This document shows, in pieces, positions 3,480 to 64,000 of a stretch of 64,000 bases of DNA. This stretch comes from Eledone cirrhosa (lineage: Eukaryota). A model generated the notes under the pieces. That model was given only the letters and a program-made list of their open reading frames with translations. It searched no databases and had not been told where the DNA came from. Location: positions 186,186,001 through 186,250,000 of the forward strand of contig OZ024741.1 of NCBI GenBank assembly GCA_964016885.1. The letters run 5' to 3'. Both the position numbers and the translations under genes were made by a program. Each line of letters opens with the position of its first letter. The stretch's first letter is position 1.

Positions 3480-4560
3480 TTTCTTTATTGGCCACAATGG
3501 CCTACATGTAGGGGAAAATACAGACAGGGACAGTGGTGGTTTTACGTAAATAACCAAAAAAATATAACAATGAAAATTCCCGAATAGTGGTATGACCAGC
3601 TAGGGGCTACACAAGTACCCCACCAATCCTGAATCACCCGATGTTTTGAGAGCTCCTGGGTGCATTCTCAGAGTAGGCACATTCACACGGGCCATTCTCG
3701 CATTATCAACTGTACTGGGGTTCAGCACTTCTCTCCCCACCCTCACCTTCATTTCCAAGTGAAACTGGAAAAAGGCGATGAGGAATTAGTCGAAGAGAAA
3801 AGTGTTTTTCTTCAGTCCTTTCGACCTGGTTTACCACACAACCTCTTCTGCTACCACCACCAGACAGAGGAACATTTCCTGCACTTCCAAGCCAGAAAAA
3901 GGAGGAAGGTCGATCTTCACTATAGACTCGGTCGTTATCTGCATCCTTTCTACACGTGACAACAGCTGTTCGACATAATTCGAAAAGTCAGCAATGCACA
4001 GACACTGGAAGAGTGTGGGCAGAACGGATTCGTCGCTCTGCGTGCATCTCGGGCAGCTCTGTCTGACAGCTCTTCCATGCTTGTAGAGTTTATCTCGAAC
4101 CGTCAGTGCCCCTCGGTAGCTCTGCCAAATGAGGGATTTCTGGAAGATGTCTAAAGTCTCCGGCTCGATAGTCCACTGGAACAAGCGGGTCAGTTCGACT
4201 TGGTCGACGCCCTGAGCCTTACCGAGTGCGGAGTTTCACTCTCCCACCACTAATCCTCAATAGAACTCGGGAGTGGAAGTCCCACTGACTGCATTGCCCG
4301 CTTGCTAGAGGGCAGTGAGAGCCTGGCAACACTCCAGATTCCAGACACCCAGTTTCGATCTCTTCTTGATTTAGGACTGCAGCTCAATTAAAGAGAAGAG
4401 CTGCGAAAATGCGCGTCTGACAAATGGTGACCTCACCTGTTCACCTTTTAGGTAGAATATCTAAAAATGCCGCAGACTCAGCAGGCGTTTGCGCATTTTT
4501 AGATATTCTACCAAAAAGTTGAACTGCCTAACCAACGGAAACTTTCCCCTCCACAAGAAT
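3480..4560 (-). mobile_element. L1/Tx1-type LINE 3' fragment (zf-RVT-like zinc-binding region), degenerate
   Basis: ORF 3831-4184 FQKSLIWQSYRGALTVRDKLYKHG..CPRC..ESV..LFQC; homologous to 11640-12730 and 35285-35650. Confidence 0.8.
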
Positions 4561-6154: not shown

Positions 6155-6179
<25 letters not shown>

Positions 6180-6185
<6 letters not shown>

Positions 6186-6275
6186 GTCCCCCAAAAATAT
6201 ATACACACTCTGGTTACCTGTACAGGCAATATTTATTAGAATGCTGTTGAAGAGTGTATACATTTTTGGGGGCAG

Positions 6276-6276
<1 letters not shown>
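6180..6276. mobile_element. Tc1/mariner-type MITE in (TA)n
   Basis: TIR-like ends agggtgtcccccaaaaa...tttttgggggca; same family as 34601-34690. Confidence 0.6.
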
Positions 6277-6313
<37 letters not shown>

Positions 6314-6761: not shown

Positions 6762-6788
6762 ACATATATTTGATATATATATATATAA

Positions 6789-6974
6789 AACAAAGATGGT
6801 GTGTTAAGATACTGGGTGTACCATAACGCACGAGGGTGCTCAATACTTAGGGTAGTGGAGTGGGTAATAGGAAAAGAGTCAGGACACCGACGGCTGGGCT
6901 CCGGTCGTCTCGACAGCTAGATCCGGATCTAGCTGTCGAAACGACCGGAGCTCAGCCGTCGGGGTCCTGACTCT

Positions 6975-7004: not shown

Positions 7005-7006
<2 letters not shown>

Positions 7007-7198
7007 TGTTTTTCCCGGGTTCAATCAGAGGTAACCACAGTAAGTAAGGTACTCAATATATAGCAGAGTATAAATATTTAATATAGAAATGGCTTCTACA
7101 GGACTAGAACTGTTTCCTTCGGGAAAAGTCATCAGAAAGCCCTGATGATTTCTCCCGAATGAAACAGTTCTAGTCCTGTAGAAGCCATATGTATATTA

Positions 7199-7203
<5 letters not shown>
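7005..7203. mobile_element. (TA)n-embedded fold-back element, family B, turning at a CTGATGA hammerhead core
   Basis: Palindrome ~7073-7203 centred on tcatcag-aaagcc-ctgatga; same family at 48181-48370, 63315-63510, 63590-63776. Confidence 0.8.
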
Positions 7204-7279
<76 letters not shown>

Positions 7280-7925: not shown

Positions 7926-9383
7926 ATCCACAAACTCTGTTTCTCACACACACAAGCAATCTGGTATACAATATATTAAAGTGATACATTGTGTCAGCAT
8001 TATCCGTTAAACAACGGTAAATTATGTTAAATCAGCAGTTCTGACAACGATAGATGAGACTGACAAAACATTTATTGAAAATGTCAAATTTCCAAATTAT
8101 TGTTATTATTTCGTTCGTTCGTTTGTTAAAAACATTGTAGATTACTCCCGTAAGGTTGTTTTGTTTTAGACCACTTTTACTTGGTATTTTGTTATGATTT
8201 TCTTTATGTCAAAGGAGACATAAGGAATTAGACATTTCCCTCGTAATAATTAGGTGTGGGGCACAAATATTTGAATTTCAAAATTATTTTGAAAAATCGA
8301 GGTTATAACCCCCTCCATATACAGGCAGATCGGCAACATTTTCTTCGAGAAATGCATGCTTTATGACAACAATTCGTACCGCACTCTGTTGAGTAATATT
8401 TACACCAAAATATAGACATAAACAATAACACCACCATCGCCAACAACAACAGCCATGACAATAAAAAAACAACATCAACAGAAGCGACAATAAAAACAGC
8501 AGTATCAACAACAACGATGACGACAACGACGACGACAAAAAAAAGCAGCAACAGCAGCAACAACAATGGCAAGAACAACAACTACAACAGGCGCAACAGC
8601 AGCAAAAATGACAACGATCACAACAGCAGCAACAACAGCAACAACCACATCGACAAAATCAACATGTGTGTGTGTGTGTGTGTATGTGTAATCTATACGT
8701 TCATAATGTCTAAAGAAAGATGAAATGAAATGTTTGCTTTCCATGTCAAACAACTGTAGGAAGTAGGATGGCCGTGTGATTACGAGGTTCGTTGACAATA
8801 AATGCCTTAAAAACCTTTAAAACCTCGGCTCAATCCATGTCATTTAAGTGAAATTGTATAGTCGGAAACTGCGTGGAAAGTAAAACCATGCCAAACAATA
8901 TGTAACGCTGAATCAATCTGGAACATAAATTAAGAGTACACGTGTTTATAGAATGATCATCTAATTACAAGGTAATTTCTTGTGTAGGCCGTTCCGTTGA
9001 TTGAACCACTCTATCATTCATCTTCATGTTTGCACGTCTATGTGTGTATGTACATATCTGCATGCATACATATCTAGGAATACAAATTGTAGTAGTTACG
9101 TACACGTCTTCGGTTTAACAGTGTAATATAGCATGGTCAATACAGTGTATTTAGCTTCCTCTATTGTAGTGACTTTAAAGCGAAATATAACATTACACCT
9201 GGTATTATGCTAAAATACAGATTTAGTTAAGTGAATTTAGTAGACAGAAGCCAATATATTTGTAAGCATAAAAATGGCATTATCTTGCAAACAACTCATC
9301 AAATTCCACATATTTTCACACACATAAATATACGTATATATATACACACACAAACACAACATATGTGTATATATATATATATA

Positions 9384-10074
9384 TTTCGTTTCTGAATTTG
9401 TTTAGCAAGATTCTTTATCTGAAATCGTGTGTTGAAACCGATATTGTTATACTTTGGGAGGGTCATGTTGCCAATAAGAAACACACGCACCAGTGACTTT
9501 CACTTCAATTTATTATATATTTATAAATTTATAAATTTACAAATCTACAAATTTATAAATTTCTGGTGTCTGGTTGGTTGGTTGGTTGGTTCCACAACCA
9601 GATAGTTGTTTATATATAGTCATAGTCCTTTCGTCACACACTCTGTGACCTCTTCAGTGACTGGAGATTCCTTTCTTTGTTTCTGTGACTTTCCTTTCTT
9701 CTGTCCTACGGCATTTTGTTTCTGTGTGTGTGTTGTGTGCTCAGTTTGCGCATGCGCTTTTTGGTGAGTTGGCAAACTGAGCACACAACACACACACAGA
9801 AACAAAATGGCGTAGGACAGAAGAAAGGAAAGGCACAGAAACAAAGAAGGAATCCCCAGTCACTGAATAGGTCACAGAGTATGTGACGAAAGGACTATGA
9901 CTATATATAAACAACTATCTGGTTGTGGAACCAACCAACCAACCAGAAACCAGAAATTTATAAATTTGTAGATTTATAAATTTATAAATTTATAAATATA
10001 TAATAAATTGAAGTGATGCAACTGGTGCGTGTGTTTCTTATTGGCAACATGACCCTCCCAAAGTATAACAATAT
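9384..10074. mobile_element. Penelope-like 3' end fold-back, family A (~310 bp arms, 22 nt spacer at 9750-9771)
   Basis: Arms 9441-9749 and 9772-10074 are reverse complements with scattered mismatches; the tail resembles the 3' end of the Naiad-type element at 45197; HHR in each arm. Confidence 0.85.
9618..9662 (-). ncRNA. Type I hammerhead ribozyme motif (mirror copy 9858-9902 on + has G8 mutated)
   Basis: AGTCA-CTGAAGA-G-GTCACA gagtg TGTGAC-GAAA-GGAC-TA|TGACT. Confidence 0.8.
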
Positions 10075-10133
10075 ATATATATATAATATAATATAATATA
10101 ATATAATATAATATATAATATATAATATATATA

Positions 10134-10186
<53 letters not shown>

Positions 10187-10479
10187 TATATATCATATAT
10201 TATAATAATAATTACTATTATTTTATATATATATATATATGTGTGTGTGTAACAAAGAGCTCTTTACAAAGTTTTCTCCGCGCCGAACAATTAAAAACTG
10301 CTTACAACAACAACAACCACCACCACCACAACCACAACAACAACAACAACTACTACTACTACTAATAATAATACTACTACTACTACTACTACTACTATGA
10401 TGTTGAGGAGGAAGTGGACGGAGAATTTAAATTATTGAGTTACTAATGCTACTGTCTCTGATGTTGAACCAAACTTTAC

Positions 10480-10528
10480 AACTTAGACTACTGCTGTTAC
10501 TACTACTACTACTACAACCTCCACCACC

Positions 10529-10563
<35 letters not shown>

Positions 10564-10573
10564 AACCTCCGCC

Positions 10574-10632
<59 letters not shown>

Positions 10633-10654
10633 TAGAACCTCCACCACTACCACC

Positions 10655-10686
<32 letters not shown>

Positions 10687-10723
10687 CACCACCACTACTA
10701 CTACTACTACTACAACCTCCACC

Positions 10724-10779
<56 letters not shown>

Positions 10780-10795
10780 AACCTCCACCACTACC

Positions 10796-10845
<50 letters not shown>

Positions 10846-10962
10846 AACCTCCACCACTACCACCACTACTACTACTACTACTCCAACCTCCACCACCACC
10901 ACCTCTACTACTACTACTACTACTTCTACTACTACCACCACCACTATTACTACTACTAATAA

Positions 10963-10998
<36 letters not shown>

Positions 10999-11008
10999 AA
11001 CCTCCACC

Positions 11009-11055
<47 letters not shown>

Positions 11056-11138
11056 AACCTCCACCACTACCACCACTACTACTACTACTACTACTCCAAC
11101 CTCCACCACCACCACCCCTACTACTACTACTACTACTT

Positions 11139-11187
<49 letters not shown>

Positions 11188-11254
11188 AACATCCACCACT
11201 ACCACCACCATTACTACTACTACTACTACTACCACTACTATAACCTCCACCACC

Positions 11255-11288
<34 letters not shown>

Positions 11289-11372
11289 TTACTACTACCA
11301 CCACCACCACCACCACCACCACCACTACTACTACTACTACAACCTCCACCACTACTACTACTACTACTACCT

Positions 11373-11409
<37 letters not shown>

Positions 11410-11450
11410 AACCTCCACCACTACCACCACTACTACTACTACTACTACCT

Positions 11451-11485
<35 letters not shown>

Positions 11486-11530
11486 GCTGCTTTTACTACT
11501 ACTACTACTACTACTATTATTACTACTATT
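10480..11530. repeat. Compound (CTA)n/(CCA)n trinucleotide array with higher-order repetition
   Basis: Recurrent ctacaacctccaccactaccacca units between CTA runs. Confidence 0.95.
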
Positions 11531-11639
11531 GCTGTTGGGGAAGAAATTGTTAACTACTCGTAAAAAGAAAACAAAGAAGGCAAATTTAAGTTTACGGATG
11601 TAAAGGAAATTCAAGCGCCTTCACATATAGTAACGATTT

Positions 11640-12730
11640 CATTTATTGGGCACAAGGGCCGACATATAGGGGACAATACAAAAGACTGGGACAGTGGGGT
11701 TTTACAGAAAAATCGAGTAAACAATATGAATAACAATAACAAAGTAACAAGAAAAATATAAGAAAAATTCCCCAATAGGTGGGGGGGGCATGACACCCAG
11801 GGTTCGCTCAGTTATCCCACTCACCTGAACGACCCGACGCTTCGAGAGCATCCTGGAACGGCACCCATCTCCTCAAATTTACCCACCTACAGGCGCATGA
11901 CCAGAGTAGGCCCACTCACACGGGCCATTCTCGCCACATTTACCCACCTTTCAGCAAATGTACTACTGGGGGCGGGGGGGGGGGTAACATTTCTCTCTCC
12001 ACCCTCACCTTCCTTTCCAAGTGAAACTTGAAGAATTTGATGAGGGATTGGCCGAAGCGAAAAATGTCTGTCTTCAGTCCTTTCAATCCGGTCCACCATA
12101 TAACCTCTTTCGCTACTGCCACCAGACAGAGGAAAAATTGCCTGCCCTTCCTGGCCAAAGGAACGCGGCGGGTCGATCTTCACTATGGACTCGGCCGATA
12201 GCCGGATCGGTTCTACACGCGACAACAGCTGTTCGACATAACTGGACAAGTCAGTAATGCACGGACACTGGACGAGTGCGTGCTGAACGGTTTCGTCGCT
12301 CTACGCGCATCTCGGGCAGGTCCGTCTGACAGCACTTCCGTGCCTGTAGAGTTTGTCTCGAACCGGCAGTGCCCCCCCCCCCTCCCCGGTAGCACTGCCA
12401 AGCGAGGGATTTTGGGAAATTATCCATCGTCCCCTGCTCGAAAGTCCTCCGGAACAGACTGGTTAGTTCGACTTCGTCGACGCCCGGAACCTCTCCGAGT
12501 GCGTCGTCGCACTTCCCACCACTAATCCTGTATAGAACTTGAGAGTGGAAGTTCCACTGACCACATTGTCCGCCTGATAGAGGGAAGTGAGTGCCTGGCA
12601 ACATTCTAGGTGCCAGTCATCCAGTACGGTCTCTCCTTGACCCAGGACTCCAGCTCAGTCAAAGAGACTCTCTGACAAACGGCGACCACAACTGTTCACC
12701 GTTTAGGCCGAATATCTGGAGATGCCGCAT
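11640..12730 (-). mobile_element. L1/Tx1-type LINE 3' fragment, frameshifted
   Basis: ORF pieces FPKSLAWQCYRG, SYVEQLLSRVEPIRLSAESIVKIDPP, FFLCLVAVAKEVIWWT..FFKFHLERKVRVER. Confidence 0.8.
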
Positions 12731-13007
12731 TTTCGAATATTAATAATAACATTCGAAAAACTCAGATTACATTTGTTGTATTCAACCATGTAGGGAGGAA
12801 GTTTTCTTTCTTGTTATATATATATATATAGGAAGTAATTCTGTCGGAAAGGTACAGGAAAAAAGAGCGCTCTATGTAGGCTACAGAGCTTAATAGTTCC
12901 CTGTCTGTAGACGCATATATGCTTATGTGAAAATGTATACGTCTACGTACTTTCTAAGTATATGCGCGTGGTTGAGTGTGTGTACGTTTATGTTCTGGAT
13001 ATTTATT

Positions 13008-13054
<47 letters not shown>

Positions 13055-13261
13055 ATTCTTTTCCTCCTCTTCTTCTTCGCCCGTTTTTTCTCAGCCTCAC
13101 TTTCATATTTCTTAAATTTATTTTTCAAATCCATATTTAATAAAAACACCATGTTTTTTTTATTTATTCATTCTGACGACTGAAAACAGATCTAGCATTT
13201 GCTTTCAAGAAACCACTGGTAAATGAAATAATTTATCTTACGTTGTGTATTACATAACTAA

Positions 13262-13318
<57 letters not shown>

Positions 13319-13321
<3 letters not shown>

Positions 13322-13536
13322 CGTTTCTGAATTTGTTTAGCAAGATTCTTTATCTGAAAACGTGTGTTGAAACCGATATTGTTATGCTTTGGGAGGGTCA
13401 TGTTGCCAATAAGAAACGCACGCACCAGTTGTTTCACTCCAATGTATTATAAATAAAATTTATAATACATTGGAGTGAAAGCAACTGGTGCATATGTTTC
13501 TTATTGGCAACATGACCCTCCCAAAGCACAACAATA
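13319..13536. mobile_element. Family A fold-back, short-arm copy
   Basis: Same left end (tttcgtttctgaatttg) and same right end (caaagcacaacaatat) as 9384-10074, turning at ~13456. Confidence 0.85.
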
Positions 13537-13860
13537 TAAATATTGACATACCCTGAAAAAAGACAACCGTAACGGTTGAAGCTTCCAGGAAGCTCCAACC
13601 GTTAAGGTTGTCTCTTTTCAGGGTATGTCAATATTTATTTATAAAACAAATCTGTATTGTATTTTATCTGATGAAAGCGCACCATAATTTGCCTTGGTGG
13701 CCCTTGAAATATGTATAATAAAATAAATATGGTTTTATAAATATAGTTTCCATTTGTTAATATATTGTATATTTACTCCACTAAATTGTTGAGTGCTTTA
13801 TATAAGTTATACACATTTTTAAGTTTGTTGAATCCCAACAAATTAAATATAACCTCTGCA
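13537..13860 (+). mobile_element. Family D element: short fold-back (13539-13636), hammerhead and tail ending in (TA)n
   Basis: Homologous to 50550-50788 (+), 49765-49940 (-) and tail 34808-34903 (-). Confidence 0.8.
13660..13725 (+). ncRNA. Type I hammerhead ribozyme motif (family D)
   Basis: TATTTTAT-CTGATGA-AAG..CACCA loop TGGTG..CTT-GAAA-T ATGT A-TA|ATAAAATA; 8 bp stem I. Confidence 0.8.
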
Positions 13861-15539: not shown

Positions 15540-17720
15540 AATCCTATTATTTTTTAGTTCAAATCCCGCCGAGGTTAACTTTGCCTTTCATCCTTATAGA
15601 GTCGATAAAATAAAGCACCAGTAACGTACTGGGTTATTGCTGGCCTTGTGCAAAAAGTAGAAATAATTATTTTTGCAGAATCCTCAACATTTTGTAACTT
15701 ATACAATAAATGTTTCTACTTTTGGCTCAAGGTCAGCAATTATATCAGTGCATTACTGGTACATTATTTTATCGACCCAGAAACGATGAAAAGCAAAATT
15801 GAGCTTGGTGGGGTTTAAACTCAGACTGTAAAGGGACGTAACTATGCTACAATGCATGACGTTCAAACCACTACCGATACTGCAAATCCACCGCCTATTT
15901 TTGTTGCAACAATAATTATTTCAACTTTTGGCACAAGGCAAGCAATTAACCAGTACATTGCTGGTACTTTATTTTATCGCAAAGTTAACCTCAGCGGGAT
16001 TTGATCTCAGCTCGTAAAGGGGCGTAACTATGCTGGAAATCATGTCAGAACCTCTACCGATACTGCCAATTCACCGCCCTTTATTAATAAATCATTATTA
16101 TTGCAATGATAATTGTTTCTACGTTTGGCACAAGGCCAGAAATTACCCAGAGCATTACTGGTACTTTATTTTATCGACCCCGTAAGGATGAAAGGCAAAA
16201 TTAACCTCGGCGGGATTTGAACTCAGAATGGCAAGGGCCGTAACTCTATACGTCTAAGCATAGCGTCCGACCCTCTACCGATACTGCCAATCCACCGCCC
16301 TTATTTATTTATTATTGCAATAATAATGATTTAGTATAGGCACAAGGCCAGTAATTTGGCGGGAGGGGAAAGTCGATTAAATCGACCCCATTACGTTACT
16401 GGTAATTTATTTTATCGACCCCGTAAGGATGAAAGGCAAAGTCAACCTCGGCGGGAATTGAACTCAGACCTTAAACGGCCGTAACTCTATGCTGCAAATA
16501 ATGATTTCTAGTATAGGCACAAGGCCAGTAATTTGGTGGGAGGGGAAAGTCGATTAAATCGACCCCAGTACGATACTGGTGCTTTATTTTATCGACCCCG
16601 TAAGGATGAAAGGCAAAGTTTACCTCGGCGGTATTTGAACTCAGACTGAAAGGGACTGTAATTCTATACTGCAAAGCATGGAGTTCGACTCTACCGATAA
16701 TGATTCCTTAGATTAATTTCACCATTACGGGGTCGATAAAATAAAGCACCAGTAATTCACTGGGATAATTGCTGGACTTATGCCAAAATGAAAATCAATT
16801 ATTGTTGCAAGTATAAATGTTGGATCGGCGCAATCGTTAGAGCGTCGGACAAAATGCATTGCCGCATCAAGCTACAGCCCTTTACGTTCCGAATTCATAT
16901 CTCATCGAAATCAACGTTGAAATTCGTCTTTCGGAGATCACTAAAATAAAGTACCACTCAAATACAGAGGTCGATATAATCGACTTTACCCATCGCAAAG
17001 ATGCTGGCCTTGTGCCGAAATTAGAAACTATTATTATGACAAGTACTTAACTCCTTAGAATCAAATGGCATTATTGATTGCGGTAAATATTTAATGGATT
17101 ATGGAGTCACCCTTTTAACAGATTACTATAATATCAATTCTTATACAGCATTTACCTCTCCGAAATCAAATGCTATTATTGACCCCGAAAATATCTAATG
17201 GAAAACTAGAGTTGTCCTTTTAACAGCTCTTTATTCTATGAATTGTCCGATAGTGAATTACATTGTAGACGTTCACTAAAGTATTATTATTATTTATTTT
17301 TCTTACTTTTTCGGGATTTAATATATTGCAAATTGTTTCTCCTGTAAACATTGAATAACAAAATGAAATTATTACAAGCATGTTTTTACGGTCCTTTATG
17401 TTCTGTGTTCAAGTCCTGCAGAAGTCAACTTCGCATTTCGTCCTTTCGGAATAGATAAAATAAAGCAATTTAATCGACTTTCGACTCACCCCTCCCCAAA
17501 TTATTGGCTTTTGCCTAAATCAGAAGCCATTATAGATGGGGGGGGGGGGGGCAATCTGGTTAGATTTTGAACAAAACCCTTTCCGGTATTTGTTCCATGA
17601 TTTAACGTTCTGAGTTCAAATCTCTCTGTGCATTTTTTCGCCTTTCATATTTCAAGAGCCTATAACATAAAATGCCAGTTAAGTATTGGGTTGATATAAT
17701 CAACTGTTTTCTACCTCATA
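15540..17720. mobile_element. Cluster of about 10 tRNA-derived SINE copies in both orientations
   Basis: Repeated gcacaaggccag...actggtactttattttatcgaccccgtaaggatgaaaggcaaag...gaactcag blocks; copies at ~16322 and ~16498 carry an extra ggggaaagtcgattaaatcgacccc segment. Confidence 0.9.
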
Positions 17721-21000: not shown

Positions 21001-21585
21001 TAAATGGAAAAGAATGAAACGAAATTTCATTTCTCACTCTTAGTACGGCCTATATCTAACCCATACGTACATATATGTATGTGTGCATATATGTATATAT
21101 ATATACATACTACTGTACGCCTGTATACATATATGTATGTACGTATACATACTTCTATTTAGGTATCAGCCGTACTAAGAGTGAGAAATGAAATTTCGTT
21201 TCATTCTTTTCCATTTATCGTTTTCGGTGCGTCCCCACGACCAACTCACTCGATATGCAAATTTGGCTGCTCAGCGGTTAACATGCATAAGGAAAGTATA
21301 TACTTTCAAACGTTCAAAGATCTGACAGAAACGTATACGATGCTGACGATAGCTAATAAGCTTGAAATTAGTACATCGTTCCTGTGTCAGTGTTGCACAA
21401 AAGGGCGACGATGGTTGCCGAGCACTGTACGGCGTAATTCGGACTGTTTGTTTACAAACAAACCGAACATTATAATAAATGTTCGGTAAACCCATACGTA
21501 CATATATATATATGTGTGCATGTATGTATATATATATACATAATACTCTACGTCTGTACACATGTATGTATGTACGTATACATAT
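21001..21585 (+). mobile_element. Family F: non-coding ~430 nt unit with terminal redundancy, one hammerhead and a short inverted arm
   Basis: Direct repeat at ~21059 and ~21489; inverted arm 21001-21049 vs 21169-21217; second copy at 48400-49260. Confidence 0.8.
21337..21379 (+). ncRNA. Type I hammerhead ribozyme motif (family F)
   Basis: ACGATG-CTGACGA-T-AGCT aata AGCT-T-GAAA-TTAG-TA|CATCGT; other copies have stem III ACTAGT. Confidence 0.8.
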
Positions 21586-24530: not shown

Positions 24531-24535
<5 letters not shown>

Positions 24536-27615: not shown

Positions 27616-27865
27616 CTCTCATATATATATGTGTGTGTGTGTGTGTGTGTATATACGTACATACACACATACACACATACATATATAAATACATGCATGC
27701 ATACATACACACATACATGCATATTTATGGTACTATAACATCAAAACTGTATAATGGAAGTTGATAAATGGAGCCGAATGGGACAGACGATATACATGTG
27801 TTTTTGTGTGCGCGCGTGTGTGCGTGTATGTGTGTGTGCGTGTGTGTGAGTTTCTATCATTATTA

Positions 27866-37600: not shown

Positions 37601-37789
37601 AACGAAGGAAATGTGGTAAGGAACCAAGTGGACCATAACGCACCAAAGTACTCAATACTTAAGGTAGTAGAGTGGGTAATAGGAACAAGTAAGACCCCGA
37701 CGGCTGAGCTCAAGCCGTTTCGACGGCTAATTCAGTCCAGAATTAGCCGTCGAAACGGCTTGAGCTCAGCCGTCGGGGTCTTACTTGTT

Positions 37790-37794
<5 letters not shown>
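37601..37794. mobile_element. Family C fold-back element
   Basis: Palindrome 37679-37794 centred on gaattc-like arms ctaattc agtcca gaattag; GAA-ACGGCT tgagctc AGCCGT-C hammerhead stem III. Confidence 0.85.
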
Positions 37795-39607: not shown

Positions 39608-39671
<64 letters not shown>

Positions 39672-39675
<4 letters not shown>

Positions 39676-39995
39676 AAAACAGATGAAATCGAAAATGCAA
39701 CTGGGGCCTTTTTTTACAAAAAATTATTTATTTGGTTCCTTTACCGGTTTCGCAGTTCTTGTGCTTTTCAAAAGTAGAATTGAGATGGAGGGTTTCTGGT
39801 TTTCCTCGCATAAAATCCACAAACTCTCCATCTCAATTCCACTTTTGAAAAGGACAAGAACTGCGTAACCGCTAAAGGAACCAAATAAATATATTTTAAA
39901 GAAAAAGGACTCCGGTTGCATTTTCGATTTCTTCTTTTTTTACTTTCACTCGTGTAGGACACCGTTTTTTCATATTGTAAAAAAAAACTCACTTT

Positions 39996-39998
<3 letters not shown>
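39672..39998. mobile_element. Family E fold-back element with variant hammerhead
   Basis: Arms ~39683-39795 / ~39821-39931; homologous single arms at 50228-50422 and 52408-52610. Confidence 0.85.
39739..39774 (-). ncRNA. Minimal type I hammerhead motif with U3-A8 core (family E)
   Basis: CTT-TTGAAAA-GCA caagaac TGC-GAAA-CCGG-TA|AAG. Confidence 0.6.
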
Positions 39999-43916: not shown

Positions 43917-43921
<5 letters not shown>

Positions 43922-44775
43922 GAAGAGAGAAGAAACATTTAGATATAATTAGTAATAAAATGTATCATACCTAAACTGCTCCTAGATTCCTCGACTACGT
44001 AGTTTCGTGGCATAAACAAAAACAATACATCATAAAGATATAGAGCCCTTGCGAGGTCTGCCGACTTATCAAGAGGATACCTCATTTTACTAGCCTCAAG
44101 AACGCGTCCACACGACGGTTGGGTGTGGATGCATTCATGTATATGTGTGTGTCCGCATGTATCTGTGTGTTTCTAAATATATTGTTAATAACTCCCTCTG
44201 GTTGAGTAATCTTTGAAGTGTGGTGACTGCTGGAAAGCTGCCATTACTCATACTTCTCGCCTCCTTCACCACCTCTTCTACGGCTTCGATATAAATACCC
44301 CCTCCGCCTCCGTGGTATTTTCTTCGGGGTTATAAGAGGCTTAGCTCTGTTTCTCGACCGTTATATCGCGTGACTATCTCCCCCTCCGCCTTTTGGGATT
44401 CTTTCTCACGTCGTGTGGACGCGTTCTTGAGGCTAGTAAAATGAGGTATCCTCTTGATAAGTCGGCAGACCTCGCAAGGACTCTATATCTTTATGATGTA
44501 TTGTTTTTGTTTATGCCACAAAACTACGTAGTCGAGGAATCTAGGAGCAGTTTAGGTATGATACATTTTATTACTAATTATATCTAAATGTTTCTTCTCT
44601 CTTCATAATGTATTTTTAACTCTGATAGTGGTTCAGTCTAGTTCAACCGGATTGGTCTGTCCCAGTCATTCATTGAGCAACATCGGTGAGGTTGGCACCC
44701 TTAACTCACGGTTGGGTGTGGATGCATTCATGTATATGTGTGTGTCTGCATGTATCTGTGTGTTTCTAAATATAT
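43917..44775 (+). mobile_element. Family G: ~593 nt non-coding terminally redundant unit plus ~200 bp inverted arm (retrozyme-like)
   Basis: Direct repeat acggttggg..ctaaatatatt at 44115 and 44708; arm 43917-44116 is the reverse complement of ~44410-44610; (TA)n on both sides; second copy 62202-63230. Confidence 0.85.
43988..44077 (-). ncRNA. Type I hammerhead motif with U3-A8 core (family G; + copy 44449-44538 has GAAA mutated)
   Basis: TCCTC-TTGATAA-GT(C)GGCA long loop TGCCAC-GAAA-CTACGTAG-TC|GAGGA. Confidence 0.7.
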
Positions 44776-45127
44776 TATATATATATATATATATATAGCA
44801 ATTTCTCTCTTTCTCACATTGCATTCGTTCGCGAAAGGTCTTTTTTCTAAGCGCTCATATATTCACCTGGCTTATGCTAACAGAATAACTATGAAGCTTG
44901 TTTCCTTCCTTCTACGGTTAGCTCTACTCTTTGTTGTTTTCCTGTCTCACTCGCCTTACGCGTTTTAATTGTCCTAATAACTTAATTTAGTTATTATTGC
45001 ACCGACGTGAGGTATATGATTTTTAATGCAATGAAATGTCTATGATCGTCGGCAAATCACTGATGAGGGACTTATTTTATTACATGTTATCCATGTGCTA
45101 CCAGCAGTATTTTTCTCCCCATTTTAT

Positions 45128-45196: not shown

Positions 45197-45200
<4 letters not shown>

Positions 45201-47020
45201 TTGCGAGGTTTTTTATATGGAATCGTGTGTCGAAACAAATATTGTTATATTTAGGAGGGTCATATGTGTGTAATATTGCCAGAATTAATAACAGAACACA
45301 CTCACTGTTTGGTTGGTTTTCGCTTCTCGCTTCTGTGTCTTCTATATCGGTAATCAAATTCATTCGGTCCTCAATGTTGCCATTGACTGACCAACGGTCA
45401 AAAATAATACAGATACAATATAGACACAAACACATATATATAGTTTATCATAAATCTTTCGTTGCAAATCTGCAACATGGTCAGTGGTGCTATAGATTAC
45501 TACCGTTGCATTGTATTTCTACGCCATCTTTATTTAGTCTGTTTATATATTTATTTATTTATTTGTTTGCTTGTTTATTTTATTTTGTCTTCTTTGCGCA
45601 TGCGTTTGTGTGTGTGTATAGTGTTTTGTTTGATGTGTGTTCGTGATTGGGTGACTGTGTATTGGTGAATGTGTTCTATGTTTACTAGTGTGTGTTTATA
45701 TGTGTTTGTTGTTATTGTGCTTGTGTATGTATTTATTTATTTATTTATTTATCTATTTATTTATTTATTTATACTTCTCTTAGGTCAGTGTTGTTTGTTT
45801 GGGTGTTGTTGTTATTCCATTCATTCTTTCTGTTTAGTCTTGGCCTTCTAAGTTCTATTTCACTGGCCTCTCTGATTTGCCTATCTGCTGGGTCATTTCT
45901 ATGTTTAGATATTATTCTAATTTCTATATTGTCTATGTTACCGTCATGTTGTTGTCTGGCATGTTCGTATAGTACTGACCCGTTTTTTCGTCCTTTTAGT
46001 TCCCCCAGTGTTGGTCTATCCTTTCACCTATGCTACGAGCTGTTTCGCCTATGTGTGTTGTCGTCATGTTTCTGCAAGTACCATCTGTACATCTTATGCT
46101 ATAGACTACGTTTCTAGTTTTACAGTTTATCCGGGGGTTTACCTTACATATGATACATTTCCTATTAATACAGTGGGTTTTCTTAAAAGGGTAGGTTTTG
46201 CTGATCAGGGATTTTATGGTGGTTCCTGGCTTTTCTACCACCTTAATCTTTAAGTGTGTCATTCTCAGGGCCTTTCTACACTGGCTAGCTAATTTCCCTC
46301 CAGGGGTAGCATCCACAAACATGACACTCTGGTATCTCTGGTTGTCGTACCATCAGGTGGCTTTCCCTATCTTATGTCTAGCCCTATCTAAGCTATTCCA
46401 GGATTTGCTACTGTATAATGGGCAAATTCCTTTCATGTCCAGTTCTATGAGGGTCTTATACTTCTCCATGGCTCCTTCGTATACTCTGGCTCTGTCTCTT
46501 TGGTTGTAGCCAGAGAACTGCATGCGGTTGATGAAGTGTTGGATGTGTCTTTCCATTTCTGTTGGGTCGCACAAGCGGGACACATTCTTCATCACTCGTA
46601 CCAAATCTGCGATCTGAATATTAAACTTAGCACTACTGGACATTGCTGAGTTTTTGAGTATCAGGTATTTGGAGGCCATGGGTTTAGCATAGTGTGAGTG
46701 GAGAATTTCGGCTCTCTCGTCTATAGTGTTAATCCAGAGTTCCGTGTCTAATACAGGTAATCTATTGTTAGGGTGTTTGGAAGGGTAATCGATAGTTACA
46801 GTTATACTCTGGTGTATGGAATTAGCTATCTGCTGGATGCGTCTAACAATGGCATACCACCCTCGTATGGGCTCCGCAAAGACCCCAAGACAGTCGACGA
46901 CCCGACAACAGGACCACCAACAGGACCCGTATGCGGAGCTAATATAGCTAGCAACTACAGGATGTCCTACTTCCTCTCAATGGTTATACGCCCCATAATC
47001 AAGATGTCCCCCAGATGTAT
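45197..47020 (-). mobile_element. Penelope-like retroelement, Naiad-type RT plus GIY-YIG, 5'-truncated with an inverted RT piece (46845-47015 on +)
   Basis: Minus strand: [79 protein letters not shown], then after a frameshift SVLYEHA..RQIREA..LNRKNEW; + strand [17 protein letters not shown]; (TA)n flanks. Confidence 0.9.
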
Positions 47021-47036
47021 GTCTCTCACACACACA

Positions 47037-47323: not shown

Positions 47324-47387
47324 TGTATATATGTATATATGTATATATATATATGTGTATATATATATATATAGAGAGAGAGAGAGA

Positions 47388-47553
47388 ATTCACAAGAATC
47401 AAAGCTATGTTCAAATCATTTATTCACTCACAATTGTTTCATCCAAACCTATGTACAAGCATTGAAAAATGCTCCGAAGACACCAATCTTAGGTTTGGAT
47501 GAAACAATTGTAAGTGAATAAATGCTTTGAACATAGCTTTGATTCTTGTGAAT
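47388..47553. mobile_element. Fold-back element with degenerate hammerhead at the turn
   Basis: Arms ~47388-47452 / ~47490-47553; CCGAAGA...GAAA-CAATTG-TA at 47474-47512. Confidence 0.7.
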
Positions 47554-47576
47554 TCTCTCTCTCTCTATATATATAT

Positions 47577-48180: not shown

Positions 48181-48368
48181 TTTTAATATAGAAGAGCTTC
48201 TACAGGACTAGAACTGTTTCATTCCCGAGAAATCATCAGGAAGCCCCTGATGATTTCTCACGAATGAAACAGTCCTAGTCGTGTAGAAGCTCTTCTATAT
48301 TAAAACTTTTACACTCTGCTATGTATGGAATACCCTACTGTGGTTACCTCCGATTCAACCCGGATTAA

Positions 48369-48370
<2 letters not shown>
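48181..48370. mobile_element. Family B fold-back element
   Basis: Palindrome centred on tcatcagg-aagcc-cctgatga with the same tail as 7005. Confidence 0.8.
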
Positions 48371-48399
<29 letters not shown>

Positions 48400-48402
<3 letters not shown>

Positions 48403-49260
48403 AGTATGTATGTATATATACGTACATACATATATGTATACAGACGTACAGTAGTATGTATATATATATATACATGCACACATATATATGCACGTTACCG
48501 AACATTTATTATAATGCTCAGTTTGTTTGTTTGTAAACAAACAAACAACCCGAATTACGCTGTACAGTGTTTGGGCAACCACGTCACCTTTTTGTTCAAC
48601 ACTGACACAGGAACGATGTACTAGTTTCAAGCTTATTAGCTATCGTTAGCATCGTATACCTTCCTGCCAGATGGTTGAACGTCTGAAAGTATATACTTTC
48701 CTTATGCATATTAACGGATGAGCAGCCTAATTTGCATATCCAGTGAGTTCAGTGGGCTGGGCACAACGAACACGATAAATGGAATAGAATGAAACGAAAT
48801 TTCATTTCTCACTCTTATACGGCATTTACTTAAATGTAAGTATGTATGTATGTATACGTACATACATATATGTATACAGACGTACAGTAGAATGTATATA
48901 TATACATACATGCACACATATATATATGCACGTATCGGTTTACCGAACATGTATTATAATGCTCGGTTTGTTTGTTTGTAAACAAACAAATAGCTGACGA
49001 TAGCTAATAAGCTTGAAACTAGTACGTCGTTCCTGTGTCAGTGTTGAACAAAAAGGTGACGTGGTTGCCTAAACACTGTAATAAATGTTCGGTAAACCGA
49101 TACGTGCATATATATATGTGTGCATGTATGTATATATATACATACTACTGTACGTCTGTATACATATATGTATGTACGTAAACATACATACATACTTACA
49201 TTTAAGTAAGAGCCGTACTAAGAGTGAGAAATGAAATTTCGTTTCATTCTATTCCATTTA
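48400..49260. mobile_element. Family F copy: ~1.3 units on minus plus an inverted arm starting at the hammerhead core
   Basis: Repeat at ~48400 and ~48836; HHR-like at 48613-48655 (-, CTAACGA) and 48994-49030 (+, CTGACGA..GAAACTAGTA). Confidence 0.8.
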
Positions 49261-49662
49261 TATATATTTGCATTTACATATGTACATATTCATACAGATA
49301 TATGTTTATGAATATGTCTAAGTAGGTCTTCCGTAAATGTGGGCTTATTTCTTTCTGTTTGTTTGATATTTTATTTAATGCATGTCACTTTATGTATGTG
49401 AGAATGGTTGTTTTGTAAGTAAAAACAATGTTCAATGGTGTCAATGCCCTATGTGTCGAACTTGAATATATTAAAATAAAAGATGGAAATAAGTTTGTGC
49501 AACTCATCGCGGAGAGTGGAATTATACTACTACAACCAATATGTTTAATAAGTGTGTTATTTGTTATGTTTGTGGTTAAACGGTTACGTGAATCCATATG
49601 GTCCGCTAAAGGTATGCTTTCTGATCTAACACGAGGAATGTTTATGCATGCAATTACACACT

Positions 49663-54529: not shown

Positions 54530-54916
54530 GAAATACAAGACCCGGCAAAGAGCGGAGGTACTCAACAGGATCAACGGCCATCCAAATAGTACTTTTTTTC
54601 CACCTGGGTGTAAAAGGCCCCCAGTTGTTGTCTAAACACCTTTCTAAGAAAGGGAAACTCTGAAAAAAACCTGCGGCTACGGAAGCATCCGATGATGTTG
54701 ACATGTACTCCTTTTCGCGTAGTGTTTTCGATGTTTGGAGAGTAGGATTGGTGGAGTGCAAGGCCTTTCCCCACTTAATAAACCTTCAAAACAAAGGCAT
54801 TGCTTGTTCAGGATCTGTTACAATACTCAGCAGAGTCTGCACCATCATATATATATATGTATATATATATATAGATAAATATACACGAGTGTGTATGATT
54901 GTGTATAGAAGATTAT

Positions 54917-55301
54917 ATTAATAAGAGGAATTCCAACTTTGTCTGATTTACTCGTTTTATTTACAATCCTTTAAAATTTATAATGGTATTATAATGAAAT
55001 AGTATGATAGAATATTAAATGTTAAGTGTTAATTGAACAAGTACTTTCATGCTTTCGCAATCTTCAGGTTCATAATGTGTGGTGACAGTCAAGTTTGCAA
55101 TTTTCAACAGTTGAAATTTGCCAACTTGACTGTCACCACACATTATGAACCTGAAGATTGCGAAAGCATGAAAGTACTTGTTCAATTAACACTTAACATT
55201 TAATATTCTATCATACTATTTCATTATAATACCATTATAAATTTTAAAGGATTGTAAATAAAACGAGTAAATCAGACAAAGTTGGAATTCCTGTTATTAA
55301 T
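54917..55301. mobile_element. Near-perfect ~385 bp palindrome (centre ~55109) carrying a hammerhead in each arm
   Basis: Arms reverse-complementary with only a few mismatches. Confidence 0.9.
55146..55184 (+). ncRNA. Minimal type I hammerhead motif (identical copy 55034-55072 on -)
   Basis: TGAAC-CTGAAGA-T-TGC gaaa GCA-T-GAAA-GTAC-TT|GTTCA. Confidence 0.8.
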
Positions 55302-56404
55302 ATAGATGTATATGTCTACATATCTATCTATCTATCTATCTATCTAACTATCTATCTATCTATCTATCTATATTTATATATATACTAGCAGAAAAAGCTT
55401 TTCTGCTGGCTTGTGTAGTGTGTATATTGATATTATACGCAGGTATATATACATATAGATATGATACATCAAATAAAATCGTTATTGACAATATACACAG
55501 AAATTGAAGAGAGACTGTGTTACACCGTCTTATGTAATCAGTAACGTAATCCATGATACATTTAAAAAAGACGATATTATATATAAACTGCATTAGGAGA
55601 AAATTAGTGACAGAAAATTAGTATGTTTATTTTAGCGATGGCCAACCGGAAGTGTTGACATTTCAGAAATGTTAAAGAAGTGAATCTTTAAATAAACAAA
55701 ATATATTTAATCAACAGCCACGAAGTTTAGTAGATTAACTATGTAATATTCATTCATTATTTAGAACGATAAAAGGCAAAGTTAATCCCGCCGAGGTTAA
55801 CTTTGCCTTTCATCCTTCCGGGGTCGATAGAATAAAGTACCAATAATGCACTCGTTAATTGCTGGCCTTGTGCCAAAAGTAGAAACAATTATTTATTCAA
55901 AGTAATCCAACTTATTTTACTAATGGGATAACAATTATAAACCGCACGCAGTCCCGCACTCCTTACTTTATTATAGTTTAGATAGAATGAATACACACAC
56001 ACACATACACACACACTCACGCACAGACACTTAGTGACAGGGGCCAATCCAACTGCTATTACCACAACATCACTAAGGAAAAGAGGAAAAGAAAGAAAGA
56101 TATAAACGAAAGTGTGAATTTTTATATATATGTAAATTGTTCTTTAATATTCTACTCTAATTATTATACGCCTTAACTTTATTAGATACTTTTTACCATA
56201 TTTTTTCTAGCATGAAGAAGTCGAAATTGTTATCGACTAAAACCGGCACTAAAATTGCTTTTAAAAAAATCTTTTTCTGTTTTTCTAAGAAAATTCTATT
56301 AGCATGCTCTACTGTTTTCTTATTTTCCTAATAATATATATCAACTTATGTATCACATCAAAACATTCTCGCTCTCTCTCTCTCTCTATATATATATAAA
56401 TATA

Positions 56405-56652
56405 ATTTCAGTGAGATCGAATTTCGGTAGCGGAAATATCCAAGAGTAAGTTCACTGAGTCCATAGGACGAGTTTAGTATACATAAGTACAGCAGTGACA
56501 TAAACAGGTACTCAAGTTTCGTTGGGTTCTGGGTCCCAATTTCTTCAGCCAGTCATGAAAAATTTTTTTTTTATTTTTCTCATGACAGGCTCAAGAAATT
56601 GGGGCCTAGAACCCAACGAAACATGAGTACCTGTTTATGTCACTGTTGTAAT
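56405..56652. mobile_element. Fold-back element with hammerheads in both arms (56504-56553 -, 56585-56634 +)
   Basis: Consensus of the arms ACAGG-CTGAAGA-A-.TTGGG loop CCCAAC-GAAA-C.TGAG-TA|CCTGT; each arm carries different mutations. Confidence 0.75.
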
Positions 56653-56754
56653 TATATATATATATATATATATTCTTTACAACTGGTCTAACCAAACAGA
56701 GGGCCTAATCGCTTTTCGGCTGGCTCAGCGTTTTAATTTTTATCAATTATTATA

Positions 56755-62152: not shown

Positions 62153-62201
<49 letters not shown>

Positions 62202-62206
<5 letters not shown>

Positions 62207-63229
62207 TATGAAGAGAGAAGAAACATTTAGATATAATTAGTAATAAAATGTATCATAGCTAAACTGCTCCTAGATTCCTCGACTACGTAGTTTCGTGGCA
62301 TAAACAAAAACAATACATCATAAAGATATAGAGTTCTTGCGAGGTTTGCCGACTTATCAAGAGGATACCTCATTTTACTAGTCGCAAGAACGCGTCTACA
62401 CGACGTGAGAAAGAATCCCAAAAGGCGGAGGGGGAGATAGTCACGCGATATAACGGTCGAGAAACAGAGCTAAGCCTCTTATAACCCCGAAGAAAATACC
62501 ACGGAGGCGGAGGGGGTATTTATATCGAAGCCGTATTTACATCGGTGAAGTTGGCACCCTTAACTCACGGTTGGGTGCGGATGCATTCATGTATATGTGT
62601 GTGTCCGCATGTATCTGTGTGTTTCTAAATATATTGTTAATAACTCCCTCTGGTCGAGCAACCTTTGAAGTGTGGGGACTGCTGAAAAGCTTCCATTACT
62701 CATACTTCTCGCCTCCTTCACCACCTCTTCTACGGCTTCGATATAAATACCCCCTCCGCCTCCGTGGTATTTTCTTCGGGGTTATAAGAGGCTTAGCTCT
62801 GTTTCTCGACCGTTATATCGCGTGACTATCTCCCCCTCCGCCTTTTGGGATTCTTTCTCACGTCGTGTAGACGCGTTCTTGAGACTAGTAAAATGAGGTA
62901 TCCTCTTGATAAGTCGGCAGACCTCGCAAGGACTCTATATCTTTATGATGTATTGTTTTTGTTTATGCCACGAAACTACGTAGTCGAGGAATCTAGGAGC
63001 AGTTTAGGTATGATACATTTTATTACTAATTATATCTAAATGTTTCTTCTCTCTTCATAATGTATTTTTAACTCTGATACTGGTTCAGTCTAGTTCAACC
63101 GGATTGGTCTGTCCCAGTCATTCATTGAGCAACATCGGTGAAGTTGGCACCCTTAACTCACGGTTGGGTGCGGATGCATTCATGTATATGTGTGTGTCCG
63201 CATGTATCTGTGTGTTTCTAAATATATTG

Positions 63230-63230
<1 letters not shown>
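62202..63230 (+). mobile_element. Family G second copy: 593 nt unit with ~100 nt terminal redundancy and ~330 bp inverted arm
   Basis: acatcggtgaag.. at 62539 and 63132; arm 62202-62535 is the reverse complement of ~62731-63064; same outer end points as the 43917 copy. Confidence 0.88.
62901..62990 (+). ncRNA. Type I hammerhead motif with U3-A8 core (mirror copy 62276-62365 on -)
   Basis: TCCTC-TTGATAA-GT(C)GGCA...TGCCAC-GAAA-CTACGTAG-TC|GAGGA. Confidence 0.72.
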
Positions 63231-63313
<83 letters not shown>

Positions 63314-63314
63314 G

Positions 63315-63515
63315 TTGATTCCCGAGTTGTGTAGGGGGTAACCACAGTTATAAAAGTTATAAAAAGTGCTCAATACACTTGTAGAGTATAGACATCTTTA
63401 TTGTATATACAAATGGTTTCTAAAGGACTAGAACTGTTTCGTACGTATGAAATCATAAGGAATGTCCTGGTGATGCGATTGAAAGAGTTCTAGTCCCATA
63501 GAAGTCATTTCTCTC

Positions 63516-63593
<78 letters not shown>

Positions 63594-63776
63594 ATATAGA
63601 AATGGCTTCTACAGGACTACAACTATTTCATTCGGGAGAAATCATCCTGATGGTTTCTCCCGAATGAAACAGTTCTAGTCCTGTAGAAGCCATTTCTATA
63701 TTAAATATTTATACTCTGCTATGTATTGATTACCTTACTTACTGTGGTTACACCCGATTGAACCCGGGATAACCTT
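63315..63776. mobile_element. Two family B fold-back elements separated by (TA)n
   Basis: 63315-63510 (diverged) and 63590-63776 share ttctacaggactagaactgtttc / gaaacagttctagtcctgtagaa arms and the ggtaaccacag tail. Confidence 0.78.
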
Positions 63777-64000
63777 ATATATATGTATATATATAAGTGT
63801 TATCACTTCCCCCACCTCATTTATAGCAATGTCTTACATTTTTTCACACTATATCTTATTTTCTTCGTCTTGCTGTTTTACTTCCTTTCTTCTTTTGTTT
63901 CATTTATTATTCTCGTTCTATAATGCGCCTCACTTCATCTCCTAGACTTAATAATTAATAAATATTTCGTTTGTTAACATTTTGAATTTTCCCGCCAAAA

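Follow-up and report, generated by a model that had tools for sequence, protein, structure and literature searches.

The window analysed here is a 64,000-nt stretch of the Eledone cirrhosa genome (assembly GCA_964016885.1, contig OZ024741.1, positions 186,186,001 to 186,250,000, forward strand), AT-rich eukaryotic DNA that is dense in microsatellites (132 tandem-repeat rows) and rich in interspersed repeats. Our subject is a set of short insertions in its (TA)n tracts, mostly with two inverted arms, that we assign to Penelope-like elements (PLEs). A first-pass annotation, centred on 9384-13536, had described a stereotyped layout of (TA)n, inverted arm, element, tail and (TA)n, with fixed outer ends and a variable turning point. 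We found 18 two-armed insertions in the window (A1-2, B1, C1-2, D1-4, E1, G1-2, H, I, J, M1-2 and an element at 45-47 kb) and eight related or ribozyme-bearing insertions that lack an inverted arm; a further candidate at 36086 was seen by eye only. The two-armed layout therefore holds for most insertions (18/26) but not for the other eight. A masked inverted-repeat scan recovered A, G and other hairpins, with 0 matches in each of 5 block-shuffled controls. When oriented by their ribozymes, the arms stand head-to-head with their 3' ends outward, and we infer that these stubs come from about nine families. Our evidence comes from this one 64-kb window, with 1-4 copies per family, and the family letters other than A and G were assigned in this analysis, since the letters B, C, E and F were left undefined in the first-pass annotation.

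Family A, the type case, consists of two copies set out as follows.

9335..9383: (TA)n target tract left of A1, broken by a CA run
9384..9440, minus strand (the sense of the element): A1 tail, 57 nt, from the distal to the proximal end position
9441..9768, minus strand: A1 long arm with a 22-nt spacer (9747-9768), the spacer assigned by its match to the autonomous element's 3' region
9618..9662, minus strand: type I minimal hammerhead motif in the A1 long arm, core start 9657, predicted cleavage after 9623
9769..10074, plus strand: A1 short arm as far as the proximal site, where TA microhomology is 4 nt; contains a hammerhead with one mismatch (core 9863)
10075..10240: AT-rich/(TA)n sequence on the right of A1
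13262..13318: (TA)n target on the left of A2
13319..13537: A2, with a tail of 57 nt (13319-13375) and arms at 13376-13454 and 13458-13537

The A1 inverted repeat (9441-10074) has arms of 306 nt (9441-9746 and 9769-10074) that are 92.5% identical by BLAST and flank the 22-nt spacer, and the A2 repeat (13376-13537) has arms of about 80 nt and a 3-nt spacer. In both copies the first nucleotides after (TA)n, the last nucleotide of the short arm and the tail length are the same. Thus, the common outer ends proposed earlier are identical to the nucleotide, their offset of ~55 nt measures 57 nt, and the arms given as 310 and ~80 bp measure 306 and about 80 nt. The turns lie ~230 nt apart. That of A2 falls in an AT-rich self-complementary array downstream of the ribozyme, and A2 consequently has no ribozyme.

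The right end of A2 has no (TA)n and overlaps by 2 nt the inverted arm of another insertion, B1 (13536-13860). A2 and B1 form a compound insert (13319-13860) in which the distal ends of both face (TA)n outward, with no (TA)n between the short ends; we suspect that one is nested in the other or that the template was switched from one family to the other. Between A1 and A2 the DNA has no relation to either, being an (ACT)n array and a fragment of a long interspersed nuclear element (LINE); the exception is one single-armed ribozyme element (13052-13265). The array, 1 kb of (ACT)n/(ACC)n at 10487-11528, has no relation to the palindromes.

Ribozymes and a broken Penelope-like element

A structural descriptor for type I hammerheads gave 12 matches, 9 with a perfect core, and all 12 lay inside these elements; 10 local dinucleotide shuffles gave 0-3 matches (0-1 with a perfect core). 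A second descriptor, used without a shuffle control, added B1, D1, D2 and an element at 43.0 kb. Each descriptor missed motifs of the other and both missed C, E, I and J; the motifs they found cover families A, B, D, G, H and M plus two single-armed elements. The family G core is a U3-A8 variant with an unusually long stem II insert of 59 nt. Short single-armed elements with hammerhead-like motifs also lie between (TA)n tracts at 42936-43098 (43005, by descriptor) and 36086-36152 (by eye). The stubs gave many Rfam microRNA matches below gathering scores, which reflect generic hairpins.

The remains of an autonomous element lie further along the window.

45198..47022: broken autonomous PLE, with the 3' untranslated region (UTR), GIY-YIG domain and reverse transcriptase (RT) thumb on the minus strand (45198-about 46838) and an inverted segment of RT motifs 1-2 on the plus strand (about 46840-47022)

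Its coding part runs in the order RT thumb, CX4CxxC linker and GIY-YIG-like domain, and is broken by an in-frame stop at 46353-46355 and a frameshift near 46000. The element is 61-66% identical to an 803-aa RT protein; 45999-46838 matches the protein P0001 at 61% over 270 aa, and the best protein match to the fragment, at 66% identity, is annotated in Octopus vulgaris. Homologues carry the RT catalytic motif, DKS, and CX4CxxC ahead of a C-terminal GIY-YIG-like motif. In the window copy the histidines of the CCHH motif flank the frameshift on either side, as judged by eye.

Family A and the 3' UTR of this element share three colinear blocks. The tail block is strong (80-84% over 67 nt; score 77 against a shuffle maximum of 30) and the score of the spacer motif was reached in 0 of 1000 shuffles, whereas the ribozyme block is weak (20 of 1000 shuffles) and a local alignment of the whole arm without the tail is not clearly above chance (60 against a shuffle maximum of 58). 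The three blocks therefore identify family A as 5'-truncated copies of the pseudo-long terminal repeat (pLTR) of a PLE with a C-terminal endonuclease (EN).

Some observations weigh against this identification. The hammerheads of C, E, I, J, D3, D4 and the autonomous copy were recognised by eye only, and no hammerhead was present among the 150 Rfam matches listed of 362. Pfam assigned no family to the PLE fragments of the window, and the matches to RVT_1 (E=0.004) and GIY-YIG (E=0.008) were both below curated cut-offs, and the domains were therefore called from motifs and from alignment with homologues. A PDB profile search returned weak RT matches only, and in an Atlas cluster at 0.94 GIY-YIG occurred in 11% of the members. 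Nevertheless, the ribozymes and the link to an element with RT and GIY-YIG support the Penelope-like identity first suggested for these insertions, and the stubs are almost certainly heavily 5'-truncated insertions of endonuclease-bearing PLEs, mostly reduced to the ribozyme-bearing pLTR. By its sequence, at least family A is placed with an element of Neptune/Nematis type, having a C-terminal GIY-YIG and a zinc linker. For the other families only ribozyme and geometry underlie the assignment; they have no open reading frame (ORF) here and may belong to Hydra or other clades.

Outer ends, turning points and arm identity

The ends and turns can be compared across the following further insertions.

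6788..6974: C1, perfect-centre hairpin with a tail of about 85 nt; turn in hammerhead stem II (motif by eye)
7006..7206: D1, hairpin with its turn at the 5' edge of the hammerhead core (7135, minus strand), tail about 65 nt
13052..13265, plus strand: single-armed hammerhead-bearing insertion (core 13173) between (TA)n tracts
13536..13860, plus strand: B1, hairpin 13536-13638 (1-nt spacer), then hammerhead core 13668 and an extension to (TA)n; adjoins A2
21001..21585: M1, tail-only inverted arm (21001-21059) and direct partial tandem of a 431-bp unit to the proximal site; core 21343
37602..37793: C2, hairpin with a tail of about 80 nt; spacer of 6 nt, lying in stem II
39669..39997: E1, hairpin, each arm about 128 nt, with a tail of about 60 nt
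43917..44776: G1, inverted arm 43917-44117 and, at 44115-44776, a direct partial tandem (593-bp unit), tail about 165 nt
47374..47565: J (the 47.4 kb element), two-armed, equal outer ends, no tail, 38-nt spacer; degenerate hammerhead by eye
48181..48371: D2, like D1 with the short arm further 5' (core 48239, minus strand)
48396..49261: M2, minus-strand partial tandem and an inverted arm from the hammerhead core to the distal end
54874..55304: H, arms of 195 nt around a 1-nt spacer, each with a hammerhead (55067 minus, 55151 plus); a single copy, tail side uncertain
56405..56655: I (the 56.4 kb element of the first-pass annotation), arms about 80 nt, extension about 75-85 nt, hammerhead by eye
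62201..63233: G2, inverted arm 62201-62535, direct partial tandem 62539-63233
63310..63778: D4 (63310-63512) and D3 (63584-63778), a pair of hairpins that share a single (TA)n tract

The distal end and 5' extent of E1 are common to two single-armed siblings (50222-50424 and 52407-52611). In family G, which had been said to behave as A does, the inverted arms differ in length (200 nt in G1, 332 nt in G2) and the ends agree within about 4 nt, but the insertions are not simple hairpins, having spacers of 291 and 195 nt and a partial tandem. Their hammerhead cores lie at 44072 (minus) and 44454 (plus) in G1, both U3-A8, and at 62360 (minus) and 62906 (plus) in G2. Family M was dropped as a terminal inverted repeat (TIR) element on finding its hammerhead and tandem unit. 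In family B, B3 (49761-49945) and B2 (50552-50787) were rejected as two arms of one insertion, being only 76% identical. A tail-only piece between (TA)n tracts, B4 (34804-34907), has its 5' end near the end of B3, and this position is a possible proximal site for the family.

(TA)n directly adjoins both sides of 12 of the 18 two-armed insertions and at least one side of all 18, as scored by eye; the claim of (TA)n at both ends thus stands for two thirds of them and fails, for example, at the right end of A2. Target-site duplications are not discernible because the insertions sit inside (TA)n. One side of the insertion is extended in families B, C, D, E, G and M and in the 56.4 kb element, in keeping with the one-sided extension noted earlier, and the tails measure about 57-166 nt. 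In A and G the tail belongs to the side that reaches further, in M to the shorter one. Ends proved exact in A and within about 4 nt in G, with a drift of about 0-10 nt within families (about 8 nt at the short ends of C, 7 in M, up to about 10 in D). Fixed ends do not extend to J, to B1, whose short arm ends upstream of its ribozyme, or to the 45-47 kb element, whose inverted arm ends inside the RT ORF and whose 3' end is 16 nt shorter than that of family A.

Each insertion tends to pair one proximal with one distal end, as found in 14 of 15 checkable cases (binomial p=5e-4 against the maximum of 0.5 for independent choice); we counted insertions with a sibling-verified tail or with no tail, leaving out H, I and the 45-47 kb element. 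This fits the earlier idea of two fixed start sites, one per target end. At the ends themselves we observed 1-4 nt of TA microhomology, with a mean of 2.8 nt where 1.0 nt is expected (15 ends, p=7e-4; 9 independent sites, p=0.008), so the TA pairing proposed for a check in the first-pass annotation lies above chance. The count was strict and used the 15 of 36 ends that have a TA flank and whose native continuation is known.

If the palindrome were itself the mobile unit, either as a master hairpin retrotransposed whole in trans or as a DNA transposon resembling a miniature inverted-repeat transposable element (MITE), siblings should repeat one structure. Turns do cluster in C and D, and true TIR elements also occur in (TA)n. 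Junction and spacer orientation, however, differ among siblings (D1-D4; C1 and C2), the A1 and A2 turns are far apart, single-armed siblings exist, and the ends are asymmetric, unlike those of TIR elements. A MITE or other TIR transposon was rejected on this asymmetry (14/15) and on the interiors and junctions that differ among siblings, and we regard a mobile palindrome of either kind as largely refuted and very improbable. The TIR elements referred to, at 6155-6304 and 34601-34688, are short, distinct in kind from the PLE stubs and presumably Tc1/mariner-like by their terminal motif. Because stubs of the present kind resemble MITEs or microRNA hairpins, they could be mis-annotated as such.

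The turning point varies in A and G, as had been claimed for the whole set, whereas the four D turns all cluster to about 10 nt around the 5' edge of the ribozyme core, and the two C turns are both in ribozyme stem II. The spacer is 0-42 nt long in 13 of the 18 two-armed insertions and belongs to the long arm in A1, D1, D3, D4, G1 and G2. At the junctions there are either 0-3 nt of microhomology or a few additional bases, and several were seen by inspection to lie at natural stem-loops. The side with the short end reaches further 5' in D2, E1, M1 and M2, by 6-8 nt in D2 and E1, and the inverted arm of M2 holds sequence upstream of the 5' end of its direct copy.

The arms of an insertion are 88.5 to 100% identical. 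Chimera formation is known to produce palindromes, and a few arms are close to perfect copies (100% over 55 nt in C2; 98-99% in G, H and M2), as an artefact of assembly, amplification or fold-back reads would give. Over 15 insertions and 1810 aligned nt, however, the arms differ by 67 substitutions (33 transitions, 34 transversions) and 6 gap openings. The argument against an artefact from arm mismatches is thereby borne out, the differences being mainly substitutions. In addition, ends are common to independent loci and the hairpins concentrate in ribozyme-bearing elements. An artefact is hardly credible, and we conclude that the palindromes are real.

The inverted arms might also postdate the insertion, through template switching during replication or fold-back repair within a fragile (TA)n tract. 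(TA)n is self-complementary, and hairpins also occur in a copy of a short interspersed nuclear element (SINE)-like repeat (3154-3400) and in a LINE fragment (4439-4524). A host process, though, would not end an arm at a family-specific site across independent loci, nor at the element boundary, and the same geometry is reported for PLEs of fly and rotifer in the accessible parts of PMC2377424 and PMC3846280. We consider such a later origin improbable.

Proposed routes to a head-to-head palindrome

The reading that we favour, with some reservation, is priming from both target ends at two sites of the element RNA, followed by early and often common stops and head-to-head joining. The GIY-YIG endonuclease would cut both strands of the (TA)n tract, as happens in vitro for another PLE. 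Each freed 3' end would then prime on the RNA downstream of the hammerhead, one at the distal and the other at the proximal family-specific site, probably aided by the 1-4 nt of TA pairing seen at the ends. Both complementary DNAs (cDNAs) would extend toward the 5' end of the RNA and stop early, near the same place in many insertions and often at a structured segment, for instance hammerhead stem I or II, as the turns suggest. The 3' ends of the cDNAs could then be united head-to-head by short microhomology, by a natural inverted repeat or by a few bases added without a template; fill-in would yield a double-stranded palindrome, with the tail as the stretch between the two start sites. The end patterns are observed in the window; every enzymatic step in this scheme is put forward as a likely reconstruction.

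The 45-47 kb insertion bears most directly on this scheme. Its inverted segment corresponds to RT aa about 243-302 of P0001 and its direct segment starts at aa 531, so that two RNA segments about 230 codons apart are joined in opposite orientation. Because the inverted segment is absent from the direct one, both target ends were primed on RNA in this insertion. Priming from both ends is likewise needed or favoured by the upstream sequence in M2, by the further 5' short arms of D2 and E1, and by family G, where the direct copy of G1 and G2 ends 67-95 nt downstream of the upstream unit's proximal site, a stop position that matches the twin-priming prediction on a tandem RNA. In L1 twin priming both target ends prime on the RNA, priming is at the poly(A) tail, and adjacent, non-overlapping segments are copied. 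That geometry fits G and the 45-47 kb element; it gives no inverted duplications. Twin priming in its classical form, on one RNA, as the first-pass annotation proposed, hence fits these insertions but not the 13 hairpins with short spacers, in which one stretch is copied in both arms.

Several findings tell against two-ended priming. J has equal ends. The two 5' extents of an insertion lie within 25 nt of each other in 12 of 15 cases (permutation p=3e-5; one per family 7/9, p=4e-4), which weighs against the model because two independent cDNAs should not stop together. This test covered 15 of the 18 insertions (M1, M2 and the 45-47 kb element left out), with lengths partly by eye (about ±5 nt), and it does not separate coupling from family-specific stall sites, which only the two copies of family A do; family hot spots explain part of the coupling. 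The two arms also share private variants by insertion at 21 sites, with 0 shared across insertions, a count to which E1 was uninformative (0 by insertion, 2 across), D1 against D3 contributed none and overlapping D pairs were non-independent. Gene conversion would give the same signal. Junction microhomology is inconsistent, with 3 nt in G1 and none plus 3 extra nt in G2. Finally, the accessible part of PMC11167929 reports no strand difference in start site and no target homology, compared with the asymmetry and microhomology seen here.

The coupled extents and shared variants are more simply explained by snap-back, the other route named in the first-pass annotation: a cDNA begun at the distal site would fold at a natural stem-loop and copy itself to the proximal site, where it would be stopped by protein or resolved by the endonuclease, the hairpin then being opened by repair or replication. 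Short spacers (13/18), turns in stem II (C), in the stem I hairpin (D) and in an AT palindrome array (A2), the 21:0 ratio of arm variants and the long arm's ownership of the spacer in six insertions agree with such folding, and self-priming has been proposed for PLE junction palindromes (accessible part of PMC3846280). On the other hand, snap-back cannot yield the 45-47 kb insertion and needs a template jump for M2. It does not predict a short arm reaching 6-8 nt further 5' in D2 and E1, which a later spacer inversion could mask, the G2 junction has no microhomology, and in vitro the RT starts at the proximal site (PMC11167929, accessible part). Snap-back thus fits many of the hairpins but not all insertions; as the general route it is possible, though we doubt it. 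Both two-ended priming and snap-back may operate.

For two-ended priming to accommodate the coupled stops and shared variants, one RNA must be copied twice, by strand displacement, or the stall sites must be shared. Tentatively, one RT dimer may copy the same RNA twice, its subunits starting at the proximal and distal sites and the follower displacing the first cDNA, with a joint halt at the ribozyme stems where the cDNAs prime each other. If true, this would account jointly for the 14/15 pairing, for coupled stops with either arm longer and for the shared private variants. There would be no separate second-strand step, a palindrome with a one-sided tail would be the default product, and the formation of PLE inverted repeats would become testable from genome statistics.

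Other repeats in the window are listed here for completeness. The SINE-like hairpin at 3154-3400 has 117-nt arms (96%) and a 13-nt spacer, lies outside (TA)n and has no hammerhead match; palindromes therefore also form outside PLEs. The SINE-like family, of about 190 bp, is abundant and forms tandem and head-to-head clusters (15556-17533, 27859-28248, 41337-41912, 58916-59316 and others), one of which contains an Rfam tRNA match above gathering score (41733-41805, minus). Two LINE fragments (3669-4474 and 11902-12729) are 76% alike with a zf-RVT match, and the first ends in the short hairpin at 4439-4524. A LINE with RVT_1 (E=8e-16) at 24531-25566 and 31545-33474, its 1-kb 3' part present twice at 95.8%, has what we take to be a restriction-endonuclease-type (Dong/R4-like) look. 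There are also a large inverted pair at 51255-53412 (810 bp, 80.6%) with a 600-bp interior that holds the PLE stub E3, a 94-bp direct repeat (43119-43212 and 43505-43598; 97.9%, about 290 bp apart) that starts at a (TA)n tract, and a 167-aa stop-free frame at 963-1466 that by eye resembles the C-terminal part of a LINE protein and has no Pfam match.

Comparison with known systems

The papers below are cited from their accessible parts. The elements described here show what is known of endonuclease-bearing (EN+) PLEs: an autonomous relative whose RT ORF carries a C-terminal GIY-YIG endonuclease, a 3' pLTR origin (family A), a hammerhead in the pLTR, and 5' truncation, inverted copies, one-sided tails and partial tandems. 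The CX4CxxC linker between RT and the C-terminal EN, and the CCHH of the EN (histidines by eye), point to the Neptune/Nematis group. PMC8557442 describes, for PLEs, a 5'-truncated inverted copy beside a direct copy, a 30-40 bp tail often at one end only, and a (TA)n bias. Neptune/Nematis EN+ PLEs in that paper resemble ours in their partial tandems, pLTR hammerhead, microsatellite targeting, C-terminal GIY-YIG and CX2-5CxxC linker, and differ in that their tails are 30-40 bp (about 57-166 nt here) and in that most copies here are pLTR-only stubs. Two other clades were rejected: Naiad, with an N-terminal EN and no canonical hammerhead, because the EN here is C-terminal and hammerheads are present, and Hydra, with DKT, a CxCX5C linker and no CCHH, because homologues of the 45-47 kb element have DKS and CX4CxxC.

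The idea of two start sites is not new, since it has been demonstrated in vitro for PAc, the Poseidon element of Anolis carolinensis (PMC11167929): two internal RT start sites bound the tail, both strands are cut and extended, and a dimer is predicted. As proposed here, the start sites lie downstream of the hammerhead, and the target is AT-rich in both. Unlike here, where ends show 1-4 nt of TA microhomology and 14/15 pairing, the in vitro system had neither target homology, which it did not require, nor strand preference, and no inverted products were reconstituted in it, as far as the accessible text goes.

Head-to-head inverted pLTRs with junction palindromes are likewise known from Penelope of Adineta vaga, for which self-priming was proposed (PMC3846280), and of Drosophila virilis, whose inverted repeats vary in size among copies (PMC2377424). 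Those elements have a 31-37 bp tail and, unlike ours, discernible target-site duplications and non-microsatellite targets. The predicted motifs of the window resemble the minimal PLE hammerheads of PMC4209133 in being type I, with a short or palindromic helix III and a U3-A8 core variant, and differ in the 59-nt stem II insert of family G; the same paper attributes opposite-strand motif pairs 100-700 bp apart to truncated PLEs.

Non-autonomous ribozyme units derived from PLEs are described in PMC7229834 and bioRxiv 10.64898/2026.07.22.740005. G (593-bp unit) and M (431-bp unit) are like these animal non-LTR retrozymes in being non-coding, hammerhead-bearing partial tandems. They are unlike them in having only 1.1-1.4 units, one ribozyme in direct orientation and an inverted arm. 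We rejected G and M as non-LTR retrozymes on this ground, at least two consecutive units each with a complete hammerhead being the mark of that class. PMC12910113, PMC13282606 and PMC8969392 treat general PLE structure and, in their accessible parts, add nothing further on geometry.

Our literature search returned no paper on these hairpins in octopus and none applying twin priming to PLEs. Within the accessible texts, and with older subscription papers outside the search, it found no quantified proximal/distal pairing, no coupling between stops, no TA microhomology at ends and no tails as long as 57-166 nt. PMC8557442 lists as an open task how the tandem and inverted structures of PLEs are formed and how microsatellites are chosen, and in PMC11167929 whatever follows first-strand priming is unvalidated. 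We conclude that the geometry and both proposed mechanisms are already published, and that the window adds a few quantitative regularities worth a genome-wide count. With about 26 such insertions in 64 kb, copy counts across the genome would suffice to choose between two-ended priming and snap-back.

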